Shown piece by piece: positions 15,692 through 61,232 of a stretch of DNA of 64,000 bases (within the stretch, counting starts at the first letter, position 1; each line of letters starts with the position of its first letter). Location of the stretch: assembly GCA_016699795.1 (NCBI GenBank), contig CP065011.1:546474-610473 (forward strand). Direction: 5' to 3'. This stretch comes from Candidatus Moraniibacteriota bacterium. Lineage in GTDB: Bacteria; Patescibacteriota; Minisyncoccia; Moranbacterales; GCA-2747515. The notes beneath the pieces were generated by a model. The model was given only the letters and a program-made list of their open reading frames with translations, was not told where the DNA came from and did no database searches. The translations under genes were made by a program, and so were the position numbers.

Positions 15692-16261
15692 ATGGTAGGA
15701 TCATATCATTTTAAAGGTCAAGAAGATGGAGAAGAAATTATCCGTGTGATTCGCCGACATTGGTTTGATATTACTATGCAGTTTCTTCCTATTATAGGAG
15801 CGATACTTGCACTTTCTGTACTTTTTCCCATACTTTCTTCAACACTTATTTTGGATATACAAGCCTCTGTTTATTGGTTTTTTGCTTCTTTTTTGGGAAT
15901 TTGTTTTTGGTTAGTTGCAAGTATTATCTGGATCGATTACTATCTGGATGTGTGGATTATGACGAATAGACGCGTAGTGAATGTTACGCAAAAAGGACTC
16001 TTTTTTCGCCACGTGAGCGATCTTCGCTACAATAAAATTCAAGACATTACAACGGAAGTGACAGGACTCATTCCTACATTTCTTAATTATGGTGATGTAT
16101 TTATTCAAACAGCGGGAACTGAGCCAAGATTTATTTTTCATAATGTGGGGAATCCTTATTTAATCAAGGATGAACTTGTAGCACTGCAAAAAAGAATGAG
16201 ACGAGGAGATATTACCGAAATGAAAAGACTGCTTCACGATGATGGAACGGCTGATATATAA
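15692..16261 (+). CDS. Membrane protein with bacterial PH-like domain (bPH_2/YdbS-like)
   Basis: EEIIRVIRRHWFDITMQ followed by two TM helices and a C-terminal globular domain. Confidence 0.4.
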   Translation: MVGSYHFKGQEDGEEIIRVIRRHWFDITMQFLPIIGAILALSVLFPILSSTLILDIQASVYWFFASFLGICFWLVASIIWIDYYLDVWIMTNRRVVNVTQKGLFFRHVSDLRYNKIQDITTEVTGLIPTFLNYGDVFIQTAGTEPRFIFHNVGNPYLIKDELVALQKRMRRGDITEMKRLLHDDGTADI

Positions 16262-18830
16262 GATGAGACGGGAGAAAAAGAGAAGGATAATTTTTGGAAT
16301 AAGTTTTCTTTGTTTTTTATTTTTGGGAAATTCTTGTGTGTATGCTGAGGAAAAAGAAATTTTTTCTCTTCGTATAAATGAAGTTCGTCTTACAGGAGGG
16401 ACGGGAAAATCAAATGAAGATTTTGTAGAAATATATAACTTTGGAAAAGAATCGATTGATTTAAAGGGGTGGTCACTGCGAAAAGAAACTTCAGGTAAAA
16501 AAGAATACTCACTTTATAGCTTTAGTTCGGAATATATTCTCAAACCAGGAGAATTTTTTCTTTGGGCAAATAAAGATAATAATTATGCAGATTCTCTTGG
16601 TGCAGATGCAAAAAATGGAAATACTCTAACGTATGAAAATAGAATCTTTCTTCAAAATAAAGAAGAAGATGAAATAGATTCTTATTTTTTTGAAAAAAGT
16701 AATCAGTACACAAGCGCCTTTGATGGGGAAAAATGGAAATGGGTTTGCAATGAAACTCCAAAGAAAGAAAATAATTTTTCTGGTTTTTTGGGTGAAAGAA
16801 CGCTTCGATTAGAAGAACTTTTACCAGATCCAGAATCAGATCAAAATGAATTTGTAGAACTGTATAATTATGGAGAAAAAGAAATTAATCTTTCAGGATG
16901 GTTTGTGAGTGATGCTGTCGAGAAAAAGGCTTTATCAGGAATTCTTGCTCCTGGTGAATATAGAGCGGATTCTTTTGGCCTTTCTCTCAATAATACAAAA
17001 GAAAAAATCTCTCTTATCGATAAATGTGAAGGATCTGTGGATACGTTTGAATACGAAGATTCTCACAAAGGAAAAAGTTGGTCTTTTGATGAAGAAAAAT
17101 GGCGAGAAACACCTTTTGTAACAAAGGGAGAAAAAAATAATTTTCCCCAAAAAATACAAGAACCAACTATTCGATTAAACGAGATAATGCCAAGTCCTTC
17201 AGAAGATCAAGAAAATAACGAATTTATTGAGATATATAATTTCGGAAAGAGTGCTGTGGATATAGGATATTGGTCATTAAAAGATGCGTCTGATACAGGA
17301 TACGTTTTTCCACGACAAACAATAATAACTCCAAACGAATATAAAGTTTTTTATAGAAAGGATTTTTCTTTTGCTTTAAATGATAGTGGAAAAGAAACAG
17401 TATATCTTTTGGATCCTGCTGATTTTGAAGTAGATTCTACTTTGTATGAAGAGACAAAAAAAGATTTCTCTTTCTCTTTCGATGAAGAAAAAAAAGAATG
17501 GAAATTAACACCTTACACAAGTCCTCACGATAAAAATATCTTTCCTCTTCATCAAAAAGACGTAAAGATTCGATTGAATGAAATTTTACCAGATCCTGAT
17601 GGGGATGAAGCAAAAAATGAATATATAGAACTCTATAATTTTGATAACAAAGAAATTGATATTTCTTATTGGGGAATTCAGGACACATCGGGTGTTGAAT
17701 ATATTTTTCCTCAAGGAACTCGTATTGCTTCGGGCGAATACTTTTCTTTTTCTAGAAATATATTTAAATTTTCCCTCAATAACACAAAAGAAAAAATTTC
17801 TCTCAAAGATGCTACTGGTTACGAAATTGATTTTGTGACATACGAAAATACCAAAAAGAATATAAGTTGGAATAGAAATGAAAAAAATGAATGGAGAAAA
17901 AGTGCACATCTTACTCCTGGAAAGAAAAATAAATTTAATAATCTTCCTAAAATTTCAGAAAAGGATATTCCAAAAAAAGGATATGTTCATATGAAAACAC
18001 TTTTTTCTGCTCATGCTAAAGATGAGGATGGAGATGAAATAAAATACCGATGGGAATTTGGAGATGGAAAAAAGAGCTATTTAGAAAATACTTCTCATAT
18101 ATATGAAAAGAAAGGAAGATACGAAGTATCTTTATATGTAAATGATGGCATAGAAGAAGTTGTTTTTTCGAAGTCCCTTGTTATTTCTAAATATCCTGAA
18201 TTTAAGGCAAAAATAGTAGCCTTTGTTCCAAATCCTGCAGGACGTGATACCGATAATGAGTGGATAGAAATTATAAATGAAGATGAAAAAACACTTGATT
18301 TGTCTTTCTGGTCTATTGCTACAGGAGCTGATGCAAAAAAACTTGTCAATCATCCCCTTCGTGATGTTGTAAAGATTGAACCTGGAAAAACAGAGAAAAT
18401 ATATCGAACGCAAAGTTCTTTTTCCTTGAGAAACTCTTCAGGAATAATTGAACTTCGTCGGCCAAATCAAACAGTTGCTCATACTGTTTCGTATGAAAAG
18501 GAGAAAATAAATGAAGGTGATACCTATCAATTTTCTTCTGGTTTATGGGGGTGGATATCGAAAGAAAAAGGAAAAGAAGTATTGTCTAAAGAAGAATCTG
18601 TCGTAGAGGAAAAAGAAGAATTTGTTTTGGGATCTTCAATTGAGAGAGAACGATATTTTTATAAAGGAATATTTATTTTGGAATACGAAAAAAGGAGACA
18701 TCTTTTGGGATATGAAGAAAAGAAATATGTAGACAAAAGAGGTGATCAATTTGTTTTTACAAGAGGTGGTCTTATAAAACAACATTCGTGGTGGACTCGA
18801 TGTCTTTGGGGGGCATGTTTGGAAGGGTAA
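16239..18830 (+). CDS. Secreted lamin-tail-domain (LTD) repeat protein with a PKD-like domain
   Basis: Five LTD units (e.g. LRINEVRLTGGTG..EDFVEIYNFGKESIDLKGWSL, IRLNEILPDPDGDEAKNEYIELYNFDNKEIDISYWGI). PKD-like YRWEFGDGKKSYLENTSHIYEKKGRYEVSLYVNDG. N-terminal signal. Confidence 0.8.
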   Translation: MMERLIYKMRREKKRRIIFGISFLCFLFLGNSCVYAEEKEIFSLRINEVRLTGGTGKSNEDFVEIYNFGKESIDLKGWSLRKETSGKKEYSLYSFSSEYILKPGEFFLWANKDNNYADSLGADAKNGNTLTYENRIFLQNKEEDEIDSYFFEKSNQYTSAFDGEKWKWVCNETPKKENNFSGFLGERTLRLEELLPDPESDQNEFVELYNYGEKEINLSGWFVSDAVEKKALSGILAPGEYRADSFGLSLNNTKEKISLIDKCEGSVDTFEYEDSHKGKSWSFDEEKWRETPFVTKGEKNNFPQKIQEPTIRLNEIMPSPSEDQENNEFIEIYNFGKSAVDIGYWSLKDASDTGYVFPRQTIITPNEYKVFYRKDFSFALNDSGKETVYLLDPADFEVDSTLYEETKKDFSFSFDEEKKEWKLTPYTSPHDKNIFPLHQKDVKIRLNEILPDPDGDEAKNEYIELYNFDNKEIDISYWGIQDTSGVEYIFPQGTRIASGEYFSFSRNIFKFSLNNTKEKISLKDATGYEIDFVTYENTKKNISWNRNEKNEWRKSAHLTPGKKNKFNNLPKISEKDIPKKGYVHMKTLFSAHAKDEDGDEIKYRWEFGDGKKSYLENTSHIYEKKGRYEVSLYVNDGIEEVVFSKSLVISKYPEFKAKIVAFVPNPAGRDTDNEWIEIINEDEKTLDLSFWSIATGADAKKLVNHPLRDVVKIEPGKTEKIYRTQSSFSLRNSSGIIELRRPNQTVAHTVSYEKEKINEGDTYQFSSGLWGWISKEKGKEVLSKEESVVEEKEEFVLGSSIERERYFYKGIFILEYEKRRHLLGYEEKKYVDKRGDQFVFTRGGLIKQHSWWTRCLWGACLEG

Positions 18831-20900: not shown

Positions 20901-23900
20901 GTGAGAAAGAAGTTTAAAAAAAAATCATTTCTTCACTTCTCCCTCCCTGTATTCTCTGGGATTTTTCTTTTTCTCTTTTTTTCTTTTTCTTCTCCTACTC
21001 ATGCTTCCACTGTAACCTGGACAGGAACAACAAGCACTGCTTGGACTACAGTAACGAACTGGAATACAGGAACTGTTCCTACAAGCACAGATGATGTTGT
21101 TATAAATTACACAGGAACGAATCAACCTACACTCGATGTAAATGGTGGAACCATTACTATACAATCTCTTACTCTTGGAGGAGGAGCATCAACTTCTACT
21201 CTTACGCTTTCTTATGGATCGCCTACAAACAAATTTATTGTTACGGGGAATGTAACGATTCTTGATAAAGGGTATCTTACGCATCCCTTTAATGATTCTG
21301 TAGAAACGCATAGACTCTTTATGGATGTCGGAGGAAATCTCGATGTTCAAACCGGAGGACAGATTAATGTGGATGGGAAGGGGTATAGTGGTGGTCCAGG
21401 ATTTGGTACATATGGGGGATCTTATGGAGGACAAAGTGCTACCGGAGGAACTATGGGGATAACATATGGGTCTTACTTAAATCCTGAAAATATTGGGAGT
21501 GGAGGGACTTCTATAAGTGGAGCTGGCTCTGTCATTCTTAATGTTACCGGCTCTGTTTTTTTAAATGGCTCCATAACTACAATAGGTTCTGATAGGGGTG
21601 CTTCTGCTGGATCTGGAGGGTCTGTAAATATTTCAACAACAACTTTTTCAGGTGCGGGAGTGATAAAGGCGAATGGAGGTGGTGCTAATGGTGGAGGTGG
21701 TCGCGTTGCTGTAAAACTTACAAGTGGAAATGACTTTGGATCGGTTACAATGCAAGCATATGGAACAGCAACTGGAACTATTTATACCGAAACCGCAAGT
21801 CAAGGATCAGGAAATGGAACGGTGATTATTGATAATAATAATCGAGCATCATCTGTATTTACTGTAATTCCATCTACCCAAACATGGACCATTAAAAATC
21901 TTGTTCTAAGAAACAAAGGGCAAATTAGTGTCCCCACAGGAACGACTCTTATTCTTGACAATCCCAACTCTGTAACCGGACTTGCTGGATCATCAGCAAT
22001 AGATAGTGGCATTGCTCTTCGAGGAGGAACCTTCGATCTTCCCCAAGGATTGCTCAATATTGAAAACTGGGCACTTATTGCAGATCTTCCTCATACACTC
22101 AATGGAGATATTATCGTCAAATCCGGAGGATATATGACTCATAGTGCTAATGGAAGTACCGAACTCTATAAAATGAATCTTACGATTAATGGGAATCTCG
22201 ATGTTCAAACCGGAGGACAGATTAATGTGGATGGGAAGGGGTATAGTGGTGGTCCAGGATTTGGTACATATGGGGGATCTTATGGAGGACAAAGTGCTAC
22301 CGGAGGAACTATGGGGATAACATATGGGTCTTACTTAAATCCTGAAAATATTGGGAGTGGAGGGACTTCTATAAGTGGAGCTGGCTCTGTCATTCTTAAT
22401 GTTACCGGCTCTGTTTTTTTAAATGGCTCCATAACTACAATAGGTTCTGATAGGGGTGCTTCTGCTGGATCTGGAGGGTCTGTAAATATTTCAACAACAA
22501 CTTTTTCAGGTGCGGGAGTGATAAAGGCGAATGGAGGTGGTGCTAATGGTGGAGGTGGTCGCGTTGCTGTAAAACTTACAAGTGGAAATGACTTTGGATC
22601 GGTTACAATGCAAGCATATGGAACAGCAACTGGAACTATTTATACCGAAACCGCAAGTCAAGGATCAGGAAATGGAACGGTGATTATTGATAATAATAAT
22701 CGAGCATCATCTGTATTTACTGTAATTCCATCTACCCAAACATGGACCATTAAAAATCTTGTTCTAAGAAACAAAGGGCAAATTAGTGTTCCCACAGGAA
22801 CCACTCTTGATCTTACTAATGCAACTATTACCAATGATGGACTCGGAACAAGTGGAATCAATGTAAATGGAGGAACTCTTTTAACTCCCGAAACAGTTAC
22901 CGTAAATGGAATATTCCTAAACATTACAGCTCCACAAACTATAAATGGAAATCTTATTCTTGGTGGGGGATCTACAACATCTACACTTACTGTAAGTAAT
23001 GGTTCTCCCACAAATAAATTCACCGTTACCGGAAATGTTACTATTGCCAACAATGGTTATCTTACCCACACAGCAAACACAAATGCAGAAACCCATAGAC
23101 TCTTCATGGATGTCGGAGGAAATCTCGATGTTCAAATTGGAGGAAAGATTAATGTGGATGGGAGGGGATATGGGGCGGGGTATGGACCGGGAATTTGTAA
23201 ATACAATAATACTTTTACTGCTTCATATGGAGGAAATAATATAGTGGATTGTGGCGGATTTGTTTACGGATCTCTTTATAATCCAGTTAATTTAGGAACT
23301 GGAGGGAATAATAATTCAGGGGGGGGGATCTATTGTTTTGAATGTTGCTGAATCAGTAATTATTTCTGGCTCAGTAACAGCAAATTCTGGATCTTCAAGT
23401 AATACAGGCACAGGAGGATCTATTAATATAATTACTGGAAGCATAAGTGGTTCAGGATCTTTAAAGGCAAATATGATTTCTAATGCTGGCGGAAGCAGTG
23501 GTGGTCGCATCGCCGTTAAACTTACTTCAGGAAATGATTTTGGGTCGATTGTAATGCAGGTATTTGGAGGACCCTCAGGATGTGGAGCTTTTCCTTGTGG
23601 AACCGCAGCAGCCGGCACTATCTACACTGAAACTGCCTCTCAAGGCCCCAACAATGGCACCCTCACCATAGACAATAACAATCAAACAGCTACCGTCCAA
23701 ACCCTCATCCCCCAAGACAACTTCACCAACAACTCCCTCTCCCTTGGAAACATCATTGTAAAAAACAAAGGACTTCTTGCCATTCCTACAGGAACCACTC
23801 TTAACACTACAGGAGACATAACCATAGGAACTCTTAACTCTTCTACTGACACCTCACACATAGTAGCCAATGGAACAGGAACTCTCATTTCTACCAATCT

Positions 23901-26900
23901 CACTATTCATGGAGTAAGTGGTACAGGAGCATCCATAAACACCAACACGAAAGGTTACACTCCTACTCTTGGAACAGGAGCAGGAACAACAGGCTCTCTT
24001 GGATATGGATCAGGAGGAACATATGGAGGAAGAGGAGGAAATAGTAGTGATGGAGCAACTTCCCCTAACACCTATGGAAATGACTTTGTTCCCGAAGATC
24101 TTGGAAGTGGAGGAGGAAAGTCTACAGGAGGAACAGGAGGAGGAGATATACGAATCAGAACGAATAACAATCTCAACCTCTATGGAACCATATCCAGTAA
24201 CGGTAGCGCTGGACTCACCAATGGTGGAGGAGGATCAGGAGGATCTATAAACATACTCTATGCAAAAAACTTCACCATAAACGGTGGAAAGCTTCAAGCC
24301 AATGGTGGGGCGGGACAAGGTGGTGGAGGAGGAGGGGGAGGAGGAAGAATCGCCTATGCCTATGAAAACAAAACATTTACCAATCAAACGATTCAAACAC
24401 TCGGAGGAACAAAAGGAGCTACCGCACCTGCAACTGATGGAAGCGCAGGTTCACTTAAATCTGGATACCTTGCTGGTTCTCTTATCTCTTCAGCATTTGA
24501 TTCCAGTAGTGATGCTAATGTCATGGGAACAATAGAATGGAAAGAAAATGAAATACTCCCAACAGGTTCTTCAGTAACTCTTTCTCTCAAAACTGCAGGA
24601 ACGAAAGGAAATCTTTCTTCTTCCCCCTGGATACAAATAGCACAATCTACTCCCTCTTCTCTTACTACACATTGTACAAAAAACAATACAACGGTAAGTT
24701 GCACAGCCAGTGCTATCCCTCAAGATATGAAAGATATCTTTGAAGATCGCTTCTTTCAATACAAAGTAGATCTTTCTTCTCCTGACCTTCTTTCTCAACC
24801 TCAAGTCGATGATGTAAAAGTAGGCTATGTTGTGAATGCTTTCCCTATGATTCAAAATGTAACCACTACTCCCAATACTGATAAAACAGTAACTATCACG
24901 TACGAAACAAAAGATGAAGATACCAATACCGGAACCAATACTCCAGGAATAGTTACTCCGAGCTTTGAATACTACAATGGAAGTAGTTGGATCAATATCG
25001 CTTCCAATACTCTAGCTCCCGAAGATATACAAAACAAAACAGTGAATCAAGATACGTACACAACACACAGTGCTACCTGGACTCCTTCTCTCGTAAGTGA
25101 ATCTTTCTATCTTACCAATGCAAAAATCCGTGTAACCGTAAGTGACAATGAAGGAGCGAATAATATCGCACGAGCTGAATCAAATACCTTTACCCTCGAT
25201 ACAAAAACTCCCACCAATCCCTCCCTCCTTGTTGATGCTTCCACTCAAGACCTCACCATTCCCTCCACCACATCTGTTCTTACTCTTGGAGTCAGTGATG
25301 ACTCTCCAACACAGATGAAGATTTCTCTTGACGAAAACCTTACCAACTCTCCTTGGGAACCTTTTAATGCAACGGTAACAATAAAACTCGAAACTGATCC
25401 CGACATTGTCTATACTCGCTTCAAAGATCAATACGGGAATGAAACACAAACCATACACACAACTACTCCAGAAACTCCTACACGAGTCATTTCTCAAGAT
25501 ACGAGTAATATGCTTCTTACCCCTCCAGAATACCGAGCCTTCGTAGGATTCAAAACAATAGAAGAACCTCCAACAGGATTCGGAAACTACAAACTCTATA
25601 GAAGTGATGACGCTACTACCTATACGCTTCAAAATATCATAACCTCAAGAACAACAAACTTCCTTACTGATGCTACCCCACAACCAGACATTCTCTACAC
25701 CTACAAAGCAAAGACAACAGACACACCAGGAAATGTTTCTTTCTTCTCACAAACCGTTACGATGAAAGCAAATGGTATTCAAGACTTCGGAGAAGGTGGA
25801 GGAGGATCAGATCAAACCCCTCCTGTTCTACAAAACGTAACCGTAGAATCTAAAGACACCACAACCGTAACTATCACATGGGAAACAGATGAACTCTCTG
25901 ACTCTCGTGTAGAATATGCAACCACTCCCAACACCTATACCAAACAAACAGGAGTCTCTACCTATGCTGACACCCAAGCACAATCAGGACTTCATAGAGT
26001 CACTCTTACCAACCTCACACCAAACACTCCCTACTTCTTTAGAGTTGCCTCTACTGATCCTCAAGGCAATACCGGAGTCAATGACAATAATGGCAATGGA
26101 TATGAAGTCACAACGAATCCTGGACCTTCTATCAGTGGTGTAGCGGTATCAAGTGCTTCTAACACACAAGCAACCATATTCTGGAATACGAATGTCCCTG
26201 CAGACTCTGTACTCCATTACAGTGAAAACAAGAATGGATCTCTTATCGATCCTATCACTCTCTCCGGATCAAGTGTTCTTACAAAAAATCATCAAGTAAC
26301 CTTAGATGCTCTTACTCAAGGAACCACCTACTATTTCTACGTTACCTCCACCGACTCACAAGGAAACATTGCCAATGACAATAATGGAGGAAACTATTTT
26401 CAATTCTCTACAACACTCGACGAAACACCTCCTACCATAACGAATCTTCAAACATCTCTTATCTCAAATGACAAAGCAGTTATTACAGCAAACACAGATG
26501 AAGAAGCATCCTTCCTCCTTCAGTACAGAAAAAAAGGAAGCCTTACCTTCACACAAACAGAACAAGGAACAACATACGATAGATCTCACTACAGGGTACT
26601 CGATACTCTTACTCCTGATACAGAGTATGAATATCAAGTGAGTGTTAAAGATATCAATCAAAACGAATCACAGAGTGATATACAAACAATGAAAACAACC
26701 TTAGATCCAGAATACAATCATGCACCTCTTTCAAAGATTCATACTATCAGTGATCCTCCTAAAGTACTCACTGATCAAAAAGCAGTCATAACCTTCCAGA
26801 CGGATCAAGCAGCAAACTGCATCCTTGAATATGGAACCCAATCAAGAAACTACCAAGAAGTTCCTCAAACAGAAGCGACAGGAATCTATGACACACTCCA

Positions 26901-28257
26901 TTCCCTGCATCTTGGAGGACTCATCTTTAACACAACCTACTTCTACAAACTTCTTTGTGAAGATAATCTTGGAACCCTCATAGAGAGTGAAGAAAAAAGC
27001 TTCACAACAAAACTCAAACAAGTAGACAGTGGAAGTGAACAAGCAGAATCTACTCCTCCCTCTATCTCAGGAGTCAAAGTCAAAGACATTACAGGAGAGA
27101 GTGCAGTCGTCAGTTGGGAGACGGATGAAGTTTCAAACTCACAGGTGAGGTATGGGACGACGAAGGAATTCGGGTCTGGGTCAATAGACGACACAGTCAA
27201 CTCCTCCCTCCAAAACTACACCACCTCCCACTCCGTAACTCTCCGAGGCCTCATCCCATCTACCAAATACTACTACTCCGCCCTCTCTCTCGACACCGCC
27301 GGAAACATAGGCACCTCCTCCCAACAAACCTTCCAAACGCAATCTCCTTCTTCCATCTCTTCCATTAAAGCTTCTTCCAAACAAATAGGGGAAACAACTA
27401 TCACATGGAAAACTTCCACTCCCACTACCTCTATTGTTGAATATGGAAACACAGAAAACTATGGACAAACAAGAAAAAGTGAAGAACTCAAAAAAGATCA
27501 TGAAATTATCATAAACAATCTTTTAGAAAACTCTACCTACCACTTCCGAGTAAAAGGAGAAGATGAATCAAAAAATCTCTTCTCTTCTTCCGACTCTACC
27601 TTTGAACCAAAGTCTCCACCACAAATCAAAGAAATCAAGATAGAAGTTCTTTCAGACAGAGAAGCAAAAGTAAACTTCCTTACTGATACTCTTACCGACT
27701 CTCTTGTAACCTACAAAAACAAAAACAAAGAAGAAGATCAAAAGAGTGAAGGAAATCCCTCCCTCCTCCAAACTCACTCCCTCACCCTCAAAGAACTCAC
27801 TCCTGGAGAAAACTACGTTCTTACTGTACGAGTCAGAGATGATATGGGAAATGAAACTCTCTCTGATGAGATAGAATTCACTATGCAAAAAGATGAAACT
27901 TCTCCTACAGTAGAAAGAGTCTCTACCGACTCCGCTCTTTCACAAAACGGAAAAGTACAAATGATTATTAACTGGCAAACAGATGAAGATGCTTCTTCCT
28001 CCCTCATCTACAAAGAAGGAAGAGCAGGAGAAGAAAAAACAGTGAATGTAAGTTCTTCCCCAACAAAGAATCACATCATTGTACTCACCTCTTGGAAACC
28101 AGGAACTCTCTACTCTTACAAAGTCATAGTAAAAGATCTGAGTGGGAATGAAACCATAACCAAAGACTACATCACCCTTACACCACAAACAAAAGAATCT
28201 GTTGTAGAACTCATCATAAAGAACTTCAAAGAAATCTTTGCTTGGACGGGAGGGTAG
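20901..28257 (+). CDS. Giant secreted surface protein (~2450 aa if joined) split into ORFs 20901..23351 and 23338..28257 by a frameshift at a G9 tract. It has a signal peptide, a thrice-repeated Gly-rich beta-helix-like module and about eight FN3/purple-acid-phosphatase-N-like domains.
   Basis: The module continues across the frame break: ..NLGTGGNNNSGGG|SIVLNVAESVI.. parallels the earlier ..NIGSGGTSISGAGSVILNVTGSVF.. FN3-like units have the form TITWETDELSDSRVEYATT...HRVTLTNLTPNTPYFFRVAS. Confidence 0.75.
21333..22798 (+). repeat. Exact in-frame tandem duplication, period 858 bp (286 codons). About 605 bp is 100% identical between the copies. A diverged third copy begins near 23090.
   Basis: aatctcgatgttcaaaccggaggacagattaatgtggatgggaaggggtatagtgg... 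recurs at 21335 and 22193. Protein segment NLDVQTGGQINVDGKGY...KNLVLRNKGQISVPTGTTL is duplicated. Confidence 0.9.
23319..23327 (+). repeat. Homopolymeric G9 tract at the frame break of the giant gene
   Basis: ttcagggggggggatc. With G8 (or G11) the two ORFs fuse in frame. Confidence 0.85.
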
Positions 28258-28462: not shown

Positions 28463-31400
28463 ATGGTTCAAGTTATTCGCGGACAGGCAAAAGATGATAC
28501 ACGACAAGAGCGAACATTCCTTGCTAAAAAGGTCATGGAAAAGATGCGGAGTCGGAGCGAAGAAGAGCAAGCCTCTTTATTAGCTCAAAGTCTAGGTTTT
28601 CCTTATGTGGACCTTAATATTATACCAATCAATACCGACTATGTCCGACTTATGTCTGTAAAGATGGCGTTGGAAAATGAAACGGGAATATTTTTGCGAA
28701 GAGCTCATGTAATTTATGCTGTTTTGACGAGACTAGATAATGAAAATGCAAAAAAAGTTGTTCAAGAAATAGCTGATGAGAATGGATGGACAGTTTTGTG
28801 GCATATTGTATCAAAAACTTCCCTCATACGTTTACATGAGCGATATAAGAAATTCTCTTTTTTTGAGAGCATTGACAACATGAAGCTCGATCTTTCTGCT
28901 GATGATTTTTCTGCATTGCAAAAAAAGTTTTCTGATATACTGGCACTCAAAAAAAATATCCTTAGCATGACAACAACGCAAACACTTTCTCTTGTGGTTG
29001 CAAGTGCTGTTTCTCTGAGGGCAAGTGATATTCATTTTGAGCCCCAAGATGAAGGTGTTCGTATGCGTTATCGTTTGGATGGTGTCTTACAAGATATTGG
29101 AATACTTCCATTTGAATCATATAAATACATTGTTTCTCGTATAAAGATGATGGGAAACATGAAATTAAATATTCGAAAAAGTTCTCAAGACGGACACTTT
29201 TCCTTCGAAGTAAATAATCAAGAAACAGGCATTACAAAACATCGTATTGATATTCGAGCAAGTTTATTACCGAGTCGATTTGGAGAAACGTTGGTAATGC
29301 GTATTTTGGATCAGAAGGGTGTTTTTTTGGATATAGCAGAATTGGGTCTTCGTGGTTATGCTTTTGAGCAACTACAAGAACAGATGAAAAGAACGAGTGG
29401 AATGGTTATAACGACAGGGCCAACCGGATCAGGAAAAACAACACTTCTTTATAGTATTCTCAAACAACTCAATGAACCGGGGGTAAAAATAATAACCATA
29501 GAAGATCCTGTGGAATATGAAGTAAAAAACATATCCCAAACGAACGTTTCCAAAGAAGATGGCTATACTTTTTCAACAGGATTACGCTCTATCGTTCGTC
29601 AAGATCCTGATATTATTCTTGTTGGAGAAATCCGTGATGATGATACTGCAAATATTGCTATTCAAGCAGCTCTTACAGGACACTTTGTTCTTTCTACTTT
29701 GCATACAAATAGTGCTGCGGGTTCTATACCAAGACTTATTAATCTTGGTGTAAAACCATCACTCATACCATCTTCTGTAAATGCTTTTATAGCACAACGT
29801 TTGGTTAGAAAATTATGTTTAGACTGTAGGGAATCATATGCTCCTGCGGAGAAAACAAAAGAAATGATTACAAAAATCATCGCTCTTATCTCACCAAAAG
29901 CTAGTGTGGCAATCCCAGCGTCATTGGAAGTCCTCTATAGACCAAAAGGTTGTTTGAAATGTAATTATACTGGATATAAAGGAAGAATAGGAATTTTTGA
30001 AATACTTTTTGTAACAGAGGGTATTGTGCAAAAAATAGAGGAATTAGCTTCAGAAATGGAAATTACAACAGCTGCTATTGAGGATGGAATGATTACTATG
30101 ACGCAAGATGGTATTCTTAAGGCTGTTGAGGGTATTACTTCTATGGAAGAAGTGTGGAGAGTGGGAGGACAATTTCAGTTTCTTGAAGATGTATATGAAA
30201 AATTAATGATGAGTTATCTTAACCGAGCTCTTTATATACCCTACACAATGCACAAAGAGATTCAGGATGCCGTTAGTACAGTTTCAAGCTTTCAGTCACA
30301 TATAGAAACCGCCCCTTCAGAAGAATTTTTTCAGAGAATTGTTTCGTATGCAGTATCTCTTGGAGCAGAAGATATTCATGTTGAACCAGAAGAGGCTGAT
30401 GTAAATATTCGTTTTCGTATAGATGGTGTATTGCAATCGGTGGCACATCTTCCTATGAGTCATTACCCAGTTTTTTTGGGTAAAATAAAACTTCTTTCTG
30501 GTATAAAAACAGAGGAACTCGCAGGACTTCGTGATAGTCGGTTTACTATAAAAAGGGAATTGGAAAATTCTTTGGATACGGAGTCAATCGATGTTCGTGT
30601 CTCAATTATTTTGGGAGGCTATGGAGAAACCGCCGTGCTTCGTCTTCTTAATATCGGAGCTCAAGCGAAGGATCTTTTTTCTTTGGGTATGAGAAAAGAA
30701 ACTCAACAAAAACTTGAAGAAGCAATGAAGACTCCCAATGGTGTTATCCTTACTACAGGACCAACGGGGTCGGGTAAGTCAACAACGCTTTATAGTATTC
30801 TTTCCAAACTCAATGAACCACATAGAAAAATCATGACTGTGGAAGATCCTATTGAATATAGAATAAGTGGAGTACTTCAAACACAAACAGATGAATCAAA
30901 AGGGTATAGCTTTTCTGTAGCACTTCGAGCACTTCTTCGTCAAAATCCCGATATCATTCTTGTAGGAGAAATTCGTGATGGAGAAACGGCAACTATGGCG
31001 GTACAATCTTCACTTACGGGTCATTTAGTTTTTTCAACATTGCACACAAATGATGCTCCCTCAGCTATACAACGATTATTGAATATGGGAGTTTCCCCTC
31101 AAGACATTGTTGGTGCTATTAATTTCGTTATGGCTCAAAGACTTGTGAGGACGTTGTGTGAATGTAAGCGACAAAGAGAAGCGACAGAGGAGGAGCAACG
31201 AGATATGTACGCTTTTTATTCGCAGTATGCAAAAGTTATAAACTTAAAAACAATGCCAGATTTTTCTCATGTATACGAACCTGTTGGATGTAAAAAATGT
31301 CGAGGAATCGGCTATTCCGGAATGGCTATGATTAGTGAAGGATTCGATATGAAAGACGAAGCCTTCCGAGATATTATTATGAGAGGAGGATCGATTTATG

Positions 31401-31516
31401 AAATTCGTCGAATCGCTATTGAAAATGGAATGATACCAATGGTGGTTGATGGTATTGATAAGGCTATTTCTGGAGTAACAAGTTTGGAAGATGTTCGTCG
31501 TGTGACGGAATTATAA
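28463..31516 (+). CDS. pilB: Tandem-fused double type II/IV secretion ATPase (two complete PilB/GspE modules in one 1017-aa chain)
   Basis: Module 1 has a GspE_N domain, GPTGSGKTT, IITIEDPVEYEV, DPDIILVGEIRD, TGHFVLSTLHTNSA, and CxxC...CxxC. Module 2 has GPTGSGKST, IMTVEDPIEYRI, DPDIILVGEIRD, TGHLVFSTLHTNDA, and CEC...CKKC. Confidence 0.85.
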   Translation: MVQVIRGQAKDDTRQERTFLAKKVMEKMRSRSEEEQASLLAQSLGFPYVDLNIIPINTDYVRLMSVKMALENETGIFLRRAHVIYAVLTRLDNENAKKVVQEIADENGWTVLWHIVSKTSLIRLHERYKKFSFFESIDNMKLDLSADDFSALQKKFSDILALKKNILSMTTTQTLSLVVASAVSLRASDIHFEPQDEGVRMRYRLDGVLQDIGILPFESYKYIVSRIKMMGNMKLNIRKSSQDGHFSFEVNNQETGITKHRIDIRASLLPSRFGETLVMRILDQKGVFLDIAELGLRGYAFEQLQEQMKRTSGMVITTGPTGSGKTTLLYSILKQLNEPGVKIITIEDPVEYEVKNISQTNVSKEDGYTFSTGLRSIVRQDPDIILVGEIRDDDTANIAIQAALTGHFVLSTLHTNSAAGSIPRLINLGVKPSLIPSSVNAFIAQRLVRKLCLDCRESYAPAEKTKEMITKIIALISPKASVAIPASLEVLYRPKGCLKCNYTGYKGRIGIFEILFVTEGIVQKIEELASEMEITTAAIEDGMITMTQDGILKAVEGITSMEEVWRVGGQFQFLEDVYEKLMMSYLNRALYIPYTMHKEIQDAVSTVSSFQSHIETAPSEEFFQRIVSYAVSLGAEDIHVEPEEADVNIRFRIDGVLQSVAHLPMSHYPVFLGKIKLLSGIKTEELAGLRDSRFTIKRELENSLDTESIDVRVSIILGGYGETAVLRLLNIGAQAKDLFSLGMRKETQQKLEEAMKTPNGVILTTGPTGSGKSTTLYSILSKLNEPHRKIMTVEDPIEYRISGVLQTQTDESKGYSFSVALRALLRQNPDIILVGEIRDGETATMAVQSSLTGHLVFSTLHTNDAPSAIQRLLNMGVSPQDIVGAINFVMAQRLVRTLCECKRQREATEEEQRDMYAFYSQYAKVINLKTMPDFSHVYEPVGCKKCRGIGYSGMAMISEGFDMKDEAFRDIIMRGGSIYEIRRIAIENGMIPMVVDGIDKAISGVTSLEDVRRVTEL

Positions 31517-55554: not shown

Positions 55555-56025
55555 GTGGACATTCAAATAAAAGTTGGAATTATAGTAATAAACGAGCGGG
55601 GGGACATTCTCCTTATTAAAGAAAAGTTGGAAAAGAACTCAATCTCTCTTTGGAATATTGTTAAAGGGTCCTACCAAGGGGGGGAGACCATTATGCAAGC
55701 AGCAATAAGAGAATGTATGGAGGAGGCTTCTGCAAACGTGAAGCTCCTATCTTCTTTGGGGACGTATGTTGCTGAAGAGCAAGGTAAGATTAGGGCGCAA
55801 TTTAATTTCTTGGCTCGAGCTAATTCTGATATCATTGCTCTGGCGTTGGAAAAAGATCAACAGTCGAGAGGTGAGGCGATTGAAGACACTTGTTGGTTCA
55901 CGAGGGAAAATGTGGGAAAGATTGGAAAAGAAGAGTTCGCTTCATTAAGGGCATACCAACTTATTCAAGACTGGTTGTCTGGAAAAGAGTTCCCTATCGA
56001 TTCTATTCAGCAGGTTTCCATGTAG
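55555..56025 (+). CDS. NUDIX hydrolase
   Basis: Nudix box GGETIMQAAIRECMEEASANV. Confidence 0.7.
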   Translation: MDIQIKVGIIVINERGDILLIKEKLEKNSISLWNIVKGSYQGGETIMQAAIRECMEEASANVKLLSSLGTYVAEEQGKIRAQFNFLARANSDIIALALEKDQQSRGEAIEDTCWFTRENVGKIGKEEFASLRAYQLIQDWLSGKEFPIDSIQQVSM

Positions 56026-57813: not shown

Positions 57814-58318
57814 AAAGAAATGATTTTAAATAAAAGAGCTTGACGAGCTCTTTTTTCTTTGAACTCATTTATAAATCAAGGTATTACTATGACGGGAGAT
57901 GTTTAATGAAAGATTGAAAGTGACGATGAAATAAATAGGAAAGTCTGCTATAGATTTCACTATTTTTATTTTGAAAAAGAATTTTTTATTTTAAATATTT
58001 TTGTTTTTAGTTCCAAGATAAACATGAATCAAAATTTTTGCTTAGACGTTTATACTTACATTGCGTTCTAAGAATTCATAGAGTATCATTACTACTATAA
58101 CCTAAAAAACACACAACTATGTTTTCAAAAAAAACAAAAAAAAACAAAAAAAAGATTCTAAAATACAAATCATTTCTCTTCTTCTTGTCATAAGCTTTTT
58201 TCTTGGAAGTATTCTTCTTATTCAAAAAACAACAACATCGAATATCTTCTCAGGAATTTCTTTTGATTTACCATTTTCAGATGCTGCTACTCCAACAATA
58301 AAACTTTCAAATGGTGAT

Positions 58319-60142
58319 ATGGAGCGAGTTGTAAATGGTAAGCCTAAGGATTGGGATTCTGGTGGACAGGCTGGAATTTCCGGTCTCACCTTGGCGAGTA
58401 TGCAAGCCCCAATGAGTAGTACGGGTTCTAAGAATGGTTCTTACTATTTGCGTGCAATGAATGCAATCGGAAAAGACGGTGCGTGGATGTGGATTACAAA
58501 TTCAGAACGCATAAACACGCAAGGAGCTACAGAGATACGAGTTAATGGTTTCGTCCGTAGTAGCGGTATAGACCTAATTATTTTTGGTATTAAAGAACAG
58601 GATGCGAATGGAAATGAAATTCAAAGTCCGACTGGACCTGCAATGAGAACTCCTTCATGGGCATGGCATGAATACACAGCCAATGCAGGAAGTCATTGGT
58701 TCAAACTTCATCCGAATACACGAACAATTTCATTTTATCTTCTTGCAAAGCCCTATACTTCAGTTCAGACATATCTTGACCTCGATCAAATTTCACTGGA
58801 GGCTAAGGGAGGCGTGACGGGACAACAAACTCTTACTGTAGCAAAAGCTGGTACTGGAGCAGGAACAATAGTATCAAATCCTTCTGGAATTAATTGTGGT
58901 ACAACATGTTCAAAAACATTACCTCAAAATACAAAGGTTACACTCACAGCTTCACCTCAAAGCGGAAATACTTTTGAAGGATGGGCAGGAGACTGTAGAG
59001 GAGCAAGTAAGACGTGTTCTGTATCTCTTACACGAGCTCGTAATGTAACGGCTACGTTTAAGGGTTCGAACACGGGAGGCTCTATCACCGTCTCTCCGGC
59101 TACCATTGTTTCGAATAATTCTTCCGTAATGCAAGGCATACTTTATAATACACAACTTGATGCTCCACTTGTTATGGTTCCTGGGGGTATCTATTGGTAT
59201 GCATCAAATTTTGTTTGTTCTGGAGGTATAAAACATGCTCAACTTAAGGGATCTTTGGATAATCCTTATGCGACACCAACCTGGTTTAAAGATACGTGTC
59301 AGAGAAATTCTAGCTATTTTTGTACTAACGCAACTTCGGTAGGAGCTAACCTTTTCACAACATTCAATCCGAGTTTGACGGATGTTGTGAATTTATGGTT
59401 GATGGGTGTGTATCAAATTCAAGGTGCTGAACTTTTGGGAATAGTGCATGAAGAAAATGTAGGCACCTTTACTCCTGGAGTTGGTTTAACTCGGATTGGT
59501 TTAGCGTGGTCGAATGATAGTGGAAATACCTGGAAATATTTAGGTCGAATAGTATCTCGTAACAATGATGTTAGTGGTGATAATATTCAAGGAGCTCCTT
59601 ATATAGTAAAAGATGGGTATTTATATGTATATTTTCATGACTACCCAGGTTTTATTGCAGTGGCAAGAGCAAATTTAAGTAGTGTTATATCTTCAGCTAG
59701 AGCAGGGCATGTCGGATCGAATATATGGAAAAAATATTATAATGGCACATGGACGCAACCGGGTTTGGGTGGATTAAGTAGCCAATTAGGACTTCAAGGA
59801 ATTTCCCATACTCAGATGGTGTACAGCACAGTGAAAAACAAATATTACATGGTTACAACTAAACTTTCATATTCTGGTGGTAATACAAATGTCAATCTTT
59901 ATGAATCTACTGATGGCGTAAGTTGGAAACAATCAGCTAAAATTGCTGATGAACCCGCAAGTCAACAAGGAACTAATGGTGGTTATCAGTATTGTTCTAT
60001 TGCAAGTACTCAAGGAACAGCGAATCATTCCGTGGGATCTGAATTTTATGTCTATTGTATGAAATTTTATTCAGGTGTAGTGGGTGTTTGTGGTTCTAAA
60101 AATCAACAAAATTTGCATCGTTGGAAAATTACTTTACAATAG
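58319..60142 (+). CDS. Secreted protein with a divergent InlB B-repeat domain plus a large C-terminal domain (paralog 1). The likely N-terminal signal anchor is encoded upstream from ~58154 without an in-frame canonical start.
   Basis: LTVAKAGTGAGTIVSNPSGINCGTTCSKTLPQNTKVTLTASPQSGNTFEGWAGDCRGASKTCSVSLTRARNVTATF. The upstream in-frame sequence encodes KIQIISLLLVISFFLGSILLI. Confidence 0.6.
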   Translation: MERVVNGKPKDWDSGGQAGISGLTLASMQAPMSSTGSKNGSYYLRAMNAIGKDGAWMWITNSERINTQGATEIRVNGFVRSSGIDLIIFGIKEQDANGNEIQSPTGPAMRTPSWAWHEYTANAGSHWFKLHPNTRTISFYLLAKPYTSVQTYLDLDQISLEAKGGVTGQQTLTVAKAGTGAGTIVSNPSGINCGTTCSKTLPQNTKVTLTASPQSGNTFEGWAGDCRGASKTCSVSLTRARNVTATFKGSNTGGSITVSPATIVSNNSSVMQGILYNTQLDAPLVMVPGGIYWYASNFVCSGGIKHAQLKGSLDNPYATPTWFKDTCQRNSSYFCTNATSVGANLFTTFNPSLTDVVNLWLMGVYQIQGAELLGIVHEENVGTFTPGVGLTRIGLAWSNDSGNTWKYLGRIVSRNNDVSGDNIQGAPYIVKDGYLYVYFHDYPGFIAVARANLSSVISSARAGHVGSNIWKKYYNGTWTQPGLGGLSSQLGLQGISHTQMVYSTVKNKYYMVTTKLSYSGGNTNVNLYESTDGVSWKQSAKIADEPASQQGTNGGYQYCSIASTQGTANHSVGSEFYVYCMKFYSGVVGVCGSKNQQNLHRWKITLQ

Positions 60143-60359
60143 AGAAAAATTATAAAGTCTTGACCATCCTAAATAAAAGAGTATCATTACTACTATAACT
60201 TAAAAAAACATACAACTATGTTTTCAAAAAAAAAAAAAAAAAAAAAAAAAAGATTCTAAAATACAAATCATTTCTCTTCTTCTTGTCATAAGCTTTTTTC
60301 TTGGAAGTATTCTTCTTATTCAAAAAAAAGCAACAACGGAGAGCTTCTCAAGAATCTCT

Positions 60360-61232
60360 ATGGACTTACCATTTTCAGATGCTGCAAATATCGATTTGCC
60401 ACCTTCAGATGCTACAGATGTTGATTTACTATCTTCAGATGCCGAAGATGTTGATCTACTATCTTCAGATACTGCTGAAGTTGCACTTAAAACTCTTATC
60501 GTGGCCAAGGTGGGTGCTGGAGCGGGAAAGATAATATCAAATCCTTCGGGAATTAATTGTGGCACAACCTGTTCTAAGGCCTATGCGAACGGTACCAGAG
60601 TTACTTTAACAGTAACACCTGCTCAGGGCAGTACCTTTGCGGGTTGGGGTGGTGCTTGTTCCGGTACGGGTACGTGTAGAGTTTTGATGGACGCTGGAAA
60701 AAAAGTAACGGCGAGATTTAATACAAAAATACAAACAGAAACCCTCAAAGTATCCAAAACCGGCTCAGGAACGGTAACATCAGAACCTGCTGGTATTAAT
60801 TGTGGTGCCACCTGTTCTAAAGATTATGAGAAAGGAATCAAAGTTATTCTGACAGCGGTCCCTGCACAGGGAAATAGCTTTGGTAGTTGGAGTGGTGGAC
60901 CTTGTCTTTCTGCTTATTCGTACAAGTGTACGGTTTCAATGGATTTTGCAAGAAATGTGACAGCGAATTTTATTACAGGAACCACACAAACACTCACCGT
61001 ATCTAAAGCTGGTACTGGGTCAGGAACAGTAACATCATATCCTGCTGGTATTGACTGTGGTTCGGCTTGCACTAAATCCTACACGAATCAAACCGCTGTT
61101 TCTTTGAAAGTAATCCCTGCGGCAGGTAGTGTCTTTGCGGGTTGGAGTGGGAATTGTTCTGGTTTGTATTCATGTGCGTTTCAAATGAATGCTCCGAAAA
61201 ATGTGACGGCAACATTCAATAAAATTCAATAA
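60360..61232 (+). CDS. Secreted protein with three divergent InlB B-repeat domains (paralog 2). Same leader arrangement; the signal-anchor coding region begins ~60252.
   Basis: Three copies of [LTVSK]AGTGxGTVTSxPAGIxCGxxCxKxYxxxTxVxLxxxPAxGSxFAGWSGxC...NVTAxF. Acidic DxxDVDLLSSDA repeats at the N-terminus. Confidence 0.6.
   Translation: MDLPFSDAANIDLPPSDATDVDLLSSDAEDVDLLSSDTAEVALKTLIVAKVGAGAGKIISNPSGINCGTTCSKAYANGTRVTLTVTPAQGSTFAGWGGACSGTGTCRVLMDAGKKVTARFNTKIQTETLKVSKTGSGTVTSEPAGINCGATCSKDYEKGIKVILTAVPAQGNSFGSWSGGPCLSAYSYKCTVSMDFARNVTANFITGTTQTLTVSKAGTGSGTVTSYPAGIDCGSACTKSYTNQTAVSLKVIPAAGSVFAGWSGNCSGLYSCAFQMNAPKNVTATFNKIQ

Follow-up and report, generated by a model that had tools for sequence, protein, structure and literature searches.

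A nine-guanine tract that splits a giant surface-protein gene of a Moraniibacteriota genome: a candidate phase-variation switch

When a long gene stops short at a homopolymer, has it been misread, has it decayed, or is it switched off? This question is raised by a locus of Candidatus Moraniibacteriota bacterium (Patescibacteriota), where a run of exactly nine G's (GGGGGGGGG, hereafter G9) separates an open reading frame (ORF) of 816 amino acids (aa; ORF1) from one of 1,639 aa (ORF2). The locus lies in a stretch of 64,000 nucleotides (nt), the whole of which was analysed and is called here the window (GenBank assembly GCA_016699795.1, contig CP065011.1, positions 546,474 to 610,473). It comes from a complete metagenome-assembled genome (MAG) of 1.19 Mb (1,186,598 bp; locus tags IPN70_), in which GenBank treats the two halves as separate proteins and not as a pseudogene. 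The reading that we tentatively favour is that G9 is a real, slippage-prone tract by which two of the seven paralogs are at present kept OFF, acting as a contingency switch in a giant adhesin-like protein. Such a reading entails, as we infer, that G9 is not an assembly error, that its length differs within the population, and that the ON form is produced and relevant.

An earlier note on this DNA had placed the split between the two ORFs at this tract, with frames that differ there by one nucleotide, and our analysis bears this out. The frame of ORF2 is +1 relative to that of ORF1 and is already open from position 23296. No other homopolymer (A/T of at least 7 nt, G/C of at least 5 nt) was found by a window-wide scan to be flanked by different-frame ORFs of at least 150 aa. 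In the G9 state, the product has 816 aa and is terminated by a TGA stop 8 codons after the tract. Removal of one G in silico (G8) gave a single ORF of 2,451 aa, reading ...NNNSGGGSIVLNV..., and a tract of eleven G's (G11) gave one of 2,452 aa, as the note had predicted; G5 likewise restored 2,450 aa (2,451 codons including the stop). The 7.3-kb gene carries no second lesion, and its 4.9-kb downstream frame is otherwise intact. G9 is the sole G/C run longer than 7 nt in the whole 64 kb, for which base composition predicts 0.02-0.09 runs of at least nine G's. The coordinates of these and the other features discussed are collected in Table 1.

Table 1. Features of the split gene and of the other interrupted genes in the window (coordinates are window positions; a slash marks the predicted cleavage site).
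Feature	Coordinates	Strand	Details
ORF1	20901..23351	+	GTG start, 816 aa; QQS61821.1 / IPN70_02795, 'hypothetical protein'
Predicted Sec signal peptide	20901..21005	+	MRKKFKKKSFLHFSLPVFSGIFLFLFFSFSSPTHA/ST; called by inspection
In-frame A9	20916..20924	+	codons 6-8 of the signal peptide (F-K-K-K)
Perfect internal duplication, copy 1	21335..21931	+	~597 nt, modules 1 and 2, period 858 nt
Perfect internal duplication, copy 2	22193..22789	+	~597 nt
Cassette shared with second locus	23118..27135	+	100% protein identity to P0144 + P0143; aa 740-2078 of the repaired protein (1,339 aa)
G9 homopolymer	23319..23327	+	codons 806-808 of the repaired ORF
ORF2	23338..28257	+	TTG start, 1,639 aa; QQS61822.1, 'fibronectin type III domain-containing protein'
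FN3 / purple-acid-phosphatase-N-like beta-sandwich array	25834..28254	+	7 Pur_ac_phosph_N + 3 fn3 stretches (Pfam)
Gene A	58119-60142	+	A8-C-A9-C-A8 (27 nt) at 58127-58153; QQS60828.1 annotated from Met 58319
Gene B	60218-61232	+	A26 at 60226-60251; QQS60829.1 annotated from Met 60360

That the two ORFs are one gene, also proposed in the note, was borne out by the fit of the repaired junction to the module motif and by five intact paralogs that read through the equivalent position. In the G8 state, the tract reads TCA GGG GGG GGA TCT, or S-G-G-G-S, and forms a conserved GGG motif before the beta-strand SIVLNV (repaired junction ...LGTGGNNNSGGGSIVLNVAESVIISGS..., containing GGGSIVLNV). In an alignment of 12 module copies, cut from the window gene and from four of the five intact paralogs, the three Gly codons of the tract fell on the motif G-[AG]-G-[AS]-[VI]-x-L-x-V, which is uninterrupted in all 11 other copies. 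An AlphaFold (AF2) model of the junction module, based on a 7-sequence alignment, was all-beta with short regular strands (predicted template-modelling score, pTM, 0.71; mean predicted local distance difference test, pLDDT, 63). The SIVLNV strand right after the tract is among its confident parts, so that the break would fall inside a folded domain. A Foldseek search of this model against the PDB gave no significant match, weak beta-helix- or autotransporter-like ones only (E>0.1), and the term 'beta-solenoid' as used here is therefore taken solely from the secondary structure of the model.

ORF1 comprises a signal peptide, two identical Gly-rich beta-solenoid-like modules of ~286 aa and the start of a third, and closes with the out-of-frame tail IYCFECC before its stop. 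ORF2 takes up the remainder of module 3, followed by a fourth, divergent Gly-rich module and by an FN3/Pur_ac_phosph_N-like array, and has no signal peptide of its own. By inspection, the N-terminus of ORF1 has the form of a Sec-type signal peptide (MRKKFKKKSFLHF...SSPTHA/ST). Together, the signal peptide, the beta-solenoid-like Gly-rich modules and the FN3-type array support the earlier suggestion that the split gene encodes a surface protein, which would presumably be exposed.

By full-length similarity and domain order, the repaired protein belongs to a Moraniibacteriota paralog family of giant FN3 surface proteins. This genome holds at least seven mosaic members of ~7 kb each, roughly 4% of its length. 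Five are intact and encode 2,140-2,628 aa (P0001, QQS61440; P0002, QQS61592; P0003, QQS61126; P0004, QQS60985; P0142, QQS61620); only the window gene and the pair P0144 + P0143 are interrupted. The repaired protein shares 84-96% identity with its six same-genome paralogs and 33-43% with proteins of other Moraniibacteriota MAGs. With P0001, identity amounts to 84% over 100% of the length and to 95.6% over the C-terminal 1,646 aa. Most blocks of the FN3-type array are identical in all six paralogs, and the same overall architecture is found in these and in other giant FN3 proteins of Moraniibacteriota and the Candidate Phyla Radiation (CPR; P0001-P0007, P0142). The signal-peptide cleavage motif, ...PTHA/STVTWTG or ...NSHA/STVTWTG, recurs in P0001, P0002, P0004, P0142 and P0144, and the N-terminus of P0003 differs from it.

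The second interrupted copy lies ~176 genes away, as judged from locus-tag spacing. Its downstream half, P0143 (QQS60964.1), falls into the same 90%-identity cluster as ORF2, has exactly the same length and begins MNVAESVIISGS..., its start MNVAESVIISG being the same artificial start just past the tract. Its upstream partner, P0144 (IPN70_03675, 800 aa; tail ...NNNSGGGIYCFECC), ends ...NPVNLGTGGNNNSGGGIYCFECC, an out-of-frame tail identical to that of ORF1, and its modules 1 and 2 are different. Since an identical out-of-frame tail needs exactly nine G's, the second locus is also G9. The cassette shared by the two loci spans 201 nt upstream of the tract to ~3.8 kb downstream and so includes the tract itself, which puts the closest locus-specific sequence 201 nt upstream of it.

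Among the seven genes, the G-tract module is confined to the two broken copies. Block-by-block comparison showed that the genes are mosaics, in which 100%-identical 40-aa windows are combined differently: P0144, for example, has the signal peptide of P0142 and a second module that matches those of P0001. A few separate variable patches correspond to residues ~1201-1440 and ~2041-2160 of the repaired protein. This arrangement suggests ongoing gene conversion or module shuffling. Gene conversion from silent cassettes, of the pilE/pilS, vlsE or MgPa type, was considered and set aside, as five of the copies are complete genes and the broken two also have their own start and signal peptide.

The window also allows G9 to be compared with other homopolymers. 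It contains four tracts of at least 9 nt. Three of them coincide with frame breaks, all three in predicted surface proteins (with a signal peptide or signal anchor), and the remaining one, the A9 of the ORF1 signal peptide, keeps the frame. Shorter tracts inside ORFs are in frame in 64 of 64 cases (47 of 7 nt, among them a G7 at 55678-55684, 15 of 8 nt, one G6 and one C6). The long A tracts occur in two adjacent paralogous genes, A and B, whose InlB-B-repeat (Flg_new_2) products share one signal anchor, DSKIQIISLLLVISFFLGSILLI. In both, a conserved start, ATGTTTTCA, is followed by the long A tract, and the ATG and the gene body are in different frames. Gene A comes into frame with one nucleotide more or two fewer, which restores MFSKKTKKNKKKDSKIQIISLLL..., and gene B with one fewer or two more, A25 or A28 giving MFSK(8)DSKIQIISLLL... 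and three Flg_new_2 repeats. No alternative in-frame start was found before the signal anchor in either gene (startless leaders of 71 and 52 codons, respectively), and the GenBank products of both are N-terminally truncated. The tract of gene A resembles the A26 of gene B interrupted by two C's. An A26 at the 5' end of a coding sequence is a hypermutable site that also favours transcriptional slippage, regardless of its precise length.

How would a switch at G9 operate? With G8 (or G11), the gene would yield the 2,451-aa protein, made up of a signal peptide, three or four Gly-rich beta-solenoid-like modules and the FN3-type array. With G9, translation would end at the stop just past the tract, partway through the third solenoid module, and the FN3-bearing 1,639 aa, having no signal peptide, would not be exported, leaving this copy OFF. 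Replication slippage by one G in either direction would return the gene to ON, and, with the same G9 cassette in a second paralog, the switch would silence one module variant of a recombining family. Re-initiation of translation at TTG 23338 was set aside as a functional route because ORF2 lacks a signal peptide.

Phase variation at the G9 tract is plausible. The gene has a G/C tract of at least 7-8 nt within its coding frame, as phase-variable genes do, and in silico a change of one nucleotide toggles it between full-length and truncated products; the class is defined by demonstrated length variation, and the gene is at present a candidate for it. Several lines of sequence evidence would speak for the switch: the exact coincidence of the break with the tract and the agreement of the repaired junction with the other 11 modules; a downstream frame that is intact, close to P0001 and without other lesions; and the same G9 break at the second locus, P0144/P0143. 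The 64 in-frame shorter tracts imply that assembly polishing worked at shorter runs. The sharp threshold at 9 nt and above fits the steep length dependence of slippage, together with a tolerance of surface genes for it, and fits a consensus error in an Illumina-polished assembly less well. A mosaic family with 100%-identical blocks is, moreover, a hallmark of surface-variation families. Hypermutability of coding poly-G tracts of at least 8 nt has been found in all bacteria examined for it (Campylobacter, Neisseria, Haemophilus, Helicobacter), and a real G9 should therefore be switchable in practice.

Other observations weigh against this reading. The tract lies about one-third into the gene and not near its 5' end. 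When the synonymous codons of the gene were shuffled (302 Gly codons), 29% of the shuffles contained a G run of at least 8 and 4% one of at least 9, so that the existence of the tract is by itself no evidence of selection; relative to codon usage, the tract is not over-represented. Even so, 11 of the 12 Gly runs of the gene that have at least three residues, including a run of nine, are encoded with G runs of no more than 5. Both broken loci carry the same length, G9, which independent fast switching does not particularly predict. To these are added several points, taken up in the next paragraph, on how the assembly was made.

In the strongest rival reading, which we consider a real possibility though on balance a doubtful one, the true tract is G8 (or G11), the gene is intact, and a systematic long-read homopolymer miscall survived polishing at both loci. 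Judged by the style of its accession and locus tags, and by its being a single closed contig of ~1.2 Mb, the assembly may come from the Danish activated-sludge study of circular MAGs (PMC8012365). The assembly was probably built from Nanopore R9.4.1 reads with Illumina polishing, a platform that tends to under-call long homopolymers; the assembled tract, however, exceeds the nearest in-frame length by one G, the opposite of this tendency. The circular Patescibacteria MAGs of that study were produced from Nanopore data with CANU or Flye, Racon, two rounds of medaka v0.6.5 and one Illumina round of Racon (PMC8012365), and, where the supplement of that study lists similar circular Moranbacterales genomes, their Illumina coverage is typically ~7-30x (PMC8012365). 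Coverage may accordingly have been modest here too. Residual indels of R9.4.1 assemblies concentrate in homopolymers and split genes into adjacent ORFs exactly there (PMC9262707), as seen at this locus, but when polishing is weak they usually affect runs of 6-8 nt as well, whereas none of the 64 such in-ORF runs in the window is out of frame. Residual sequencing error, like a real contingency system, would place breaks at the longest tracts. The three frame breaks of the 64 kb, which all stand at the longest homopolymers, do not exceed the residual indel rates reported for such assemblies, and no platform can size an A26 reliably; a run of 9 nt, on the other hand, is normally well within Illumina consensus accuracy. 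Because the segment around the tract is present at two loci, short reads would map to both and could not be assigned to either, and because its context is identical at the two, a context-dependent basecalling error would recur identically. A systematic error would also predict the equal tract length.

If the tract is real, it may still not be a switch. A frameshift that is genuine but fixed seems unlikely to us: here duplication or gene conversion would have placed a dead G9 cassette in two paralogs, with no adaptive switching, and the downstream ORF would look intact only through continual homogenisation against the five intact paralogs. Such an origin agrees with the identical cassette and identical G9 at two loci and with the pervasive block-wise identity, which fits gene conversion able both to spread a lesion and to mask its decay; five intact paralogs would make the loss of two copies cheap, and the tract bears no statistical sign of selection. 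Yet G9 is intrinsically unstable, as is well established, and ON revertants must arise whether selected or not; the locus-specific N-terminal modules are intact (816 and 800 aa without stops), and a second lesion is absent from the entire gene. Still further from being probable is programmed recoding, in which a functional G9 would cause slippage of RNA polymerase or +1 slippage of the ribosome and so set a fixed ratio of the 816-aa to the full-length product. For this, the out-of-frame arrangement is kept in two paralogs, GGG_GGG_GGG permits perfect re-pairing of tRNA-Gly in the +1 frame, and genes A and B have their frame breaks at long A runs, a kind of site with well-documented transcriptional slippage (dnaX in Thermus, poly(A) rescue in endosymbionts). 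Efficient transcriptional slippage, however, is documented mainly for A/T runs, and conservation in two copies is equally explained by recent gene conversion (4 kb identical): apart from the window gene, the arrangement is kept in one paralog only, through the 100%-identical 1,339-aa cassette, and the five others are in frame. No stimulatory element was seen, although no dedicated search for one was made, and the truncated product ends in mid-domain and does not make a sensible second product.

Independent copies of the tract were sought in public collections. No relative was recovered when GTDB species genomes were scanned with the protein as guide, and the exact flanks of the tract, with any tract length from 6 to 12, had no match in JGI metagenomes or GTDB genomes. 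The repaired G8 protein had no exact match in a collection of 15 billion sequences. A junction-centred search with 220 aa of protein (Logan, ENA, JGI) returned matches of at most 51% identity; L001 and L002 among them are single-module proteins of high-GC organisms and are uninformative on the tract. Searches of a literature library retrieved no paper linking phase variation with CPR/Patescibacteria.

Returning to the contingency switch, it may not stand by itself. It is possible, if rather doubtful, that the window reveals part of a multi-locus contingency system of an ultra-small CPR/Patescibacteria member, in which the G9 cassette in two of seven adhesin genes and the poly-A switches in the two InlB-repeat genes (A26 and A8-C-A9-C-A8) would vary the surface stochastically, presumably for host attachment or phage evasion.

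Two groups of known systems bear comparison with it. The poly-G loci of Campylobacter jejuni, like those of Neisseria, Haemophilus and Helicobacter, share with the window gene an intragenic run of G8-G11 in a small, low-GC genome, a toggle between full-length and truncated products by one nucleotide, surface targets, and several loci per genome. In contrast, their length heterogeneity has been shown experimentally, whereas that of the window gene is a prediction. They usually lie near the 5' end of ~1-kb genes, often for glycosyltransferases, and not at codons 806-808 of a 2,451-codon multi-module protein with its cassette in two paralogs. Poly-G is also strongly over-represented in Campylobacter, whereas the single tract of the window gene is compatible with codon usage. 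The vlp, vsa, vsp and MgPa families of Mycoplasma resemble the present one in the reduced, AT-rich genome, host dependence, multi-paralog surface families with conserved and variable blocks, and the combination of homopolymer (poly-A) switches with recombination between paralogs. Their switches, however, act mostly at the promoter or by site-specific inversion, on lipoproteins of modest size, whereas the tracts here lie inside coding sequence, the proteins are giant, and five of the seven copies are complete genes rather than silent cassettes.

The mechanism would thus be an already known one, the classical poly-G contingency switch, in a new lineage and family context. CPR organisms probably live on the surface of other cells, and to our knowledge almost nothing has been reported on the variation or regulation of their own surfaces. 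If real and variable, G9 would provide a first concrete case of classical contingency-locus phase variation in the CPR, layered on a recombining family of giant proteins. If it is an artefact, the pairs QQS61821/QQS61822 and IPN70_03675/QQS60964 each represent a single gene mis-annotated as two, the same kind of error would apply to QQS60828 and QQS60829 with their truncated N-termini, and the locus would offer a useful caution for the mining of long-read MAGs for 'novel' proteins.

Some further features of the region deserve mention. The perfect duplications of ~597 nt within modules 1 and 2 reflect either a recent tandem module duplication or a collapse or expansion in the long-read assembly; an analogous perfect internal duplication of modules occurs in P0001. 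Directly downstream of the giant gene, 28463-31516 (+) encodes a protein of 1,017 aa with two T2SSE (type II/IV secretion or pilus ATPase) stretches (QQS61823.1, 'TadA' in GenBank), which appears to be a tandem-domain pilus ATPase adjoining the giant surface protein. Two genes upstream, 16239-18830 (+) encodes 863 aa with five lamin-tail domains (LTD) and a PKD domain, probably another surface protein. G+C content is 41-42% in window positions 22000-28000 and 32-35% in the flanks, and GC skew turns negative, with values of -0.15 to -0.27, over the C-terminal two-thirds of the giant gene, even though the genes on either side share its strand; both shifts are probably an effect of the codon and amino-acid composition of a Thr/Ser/Gly/Asn-rich protein.

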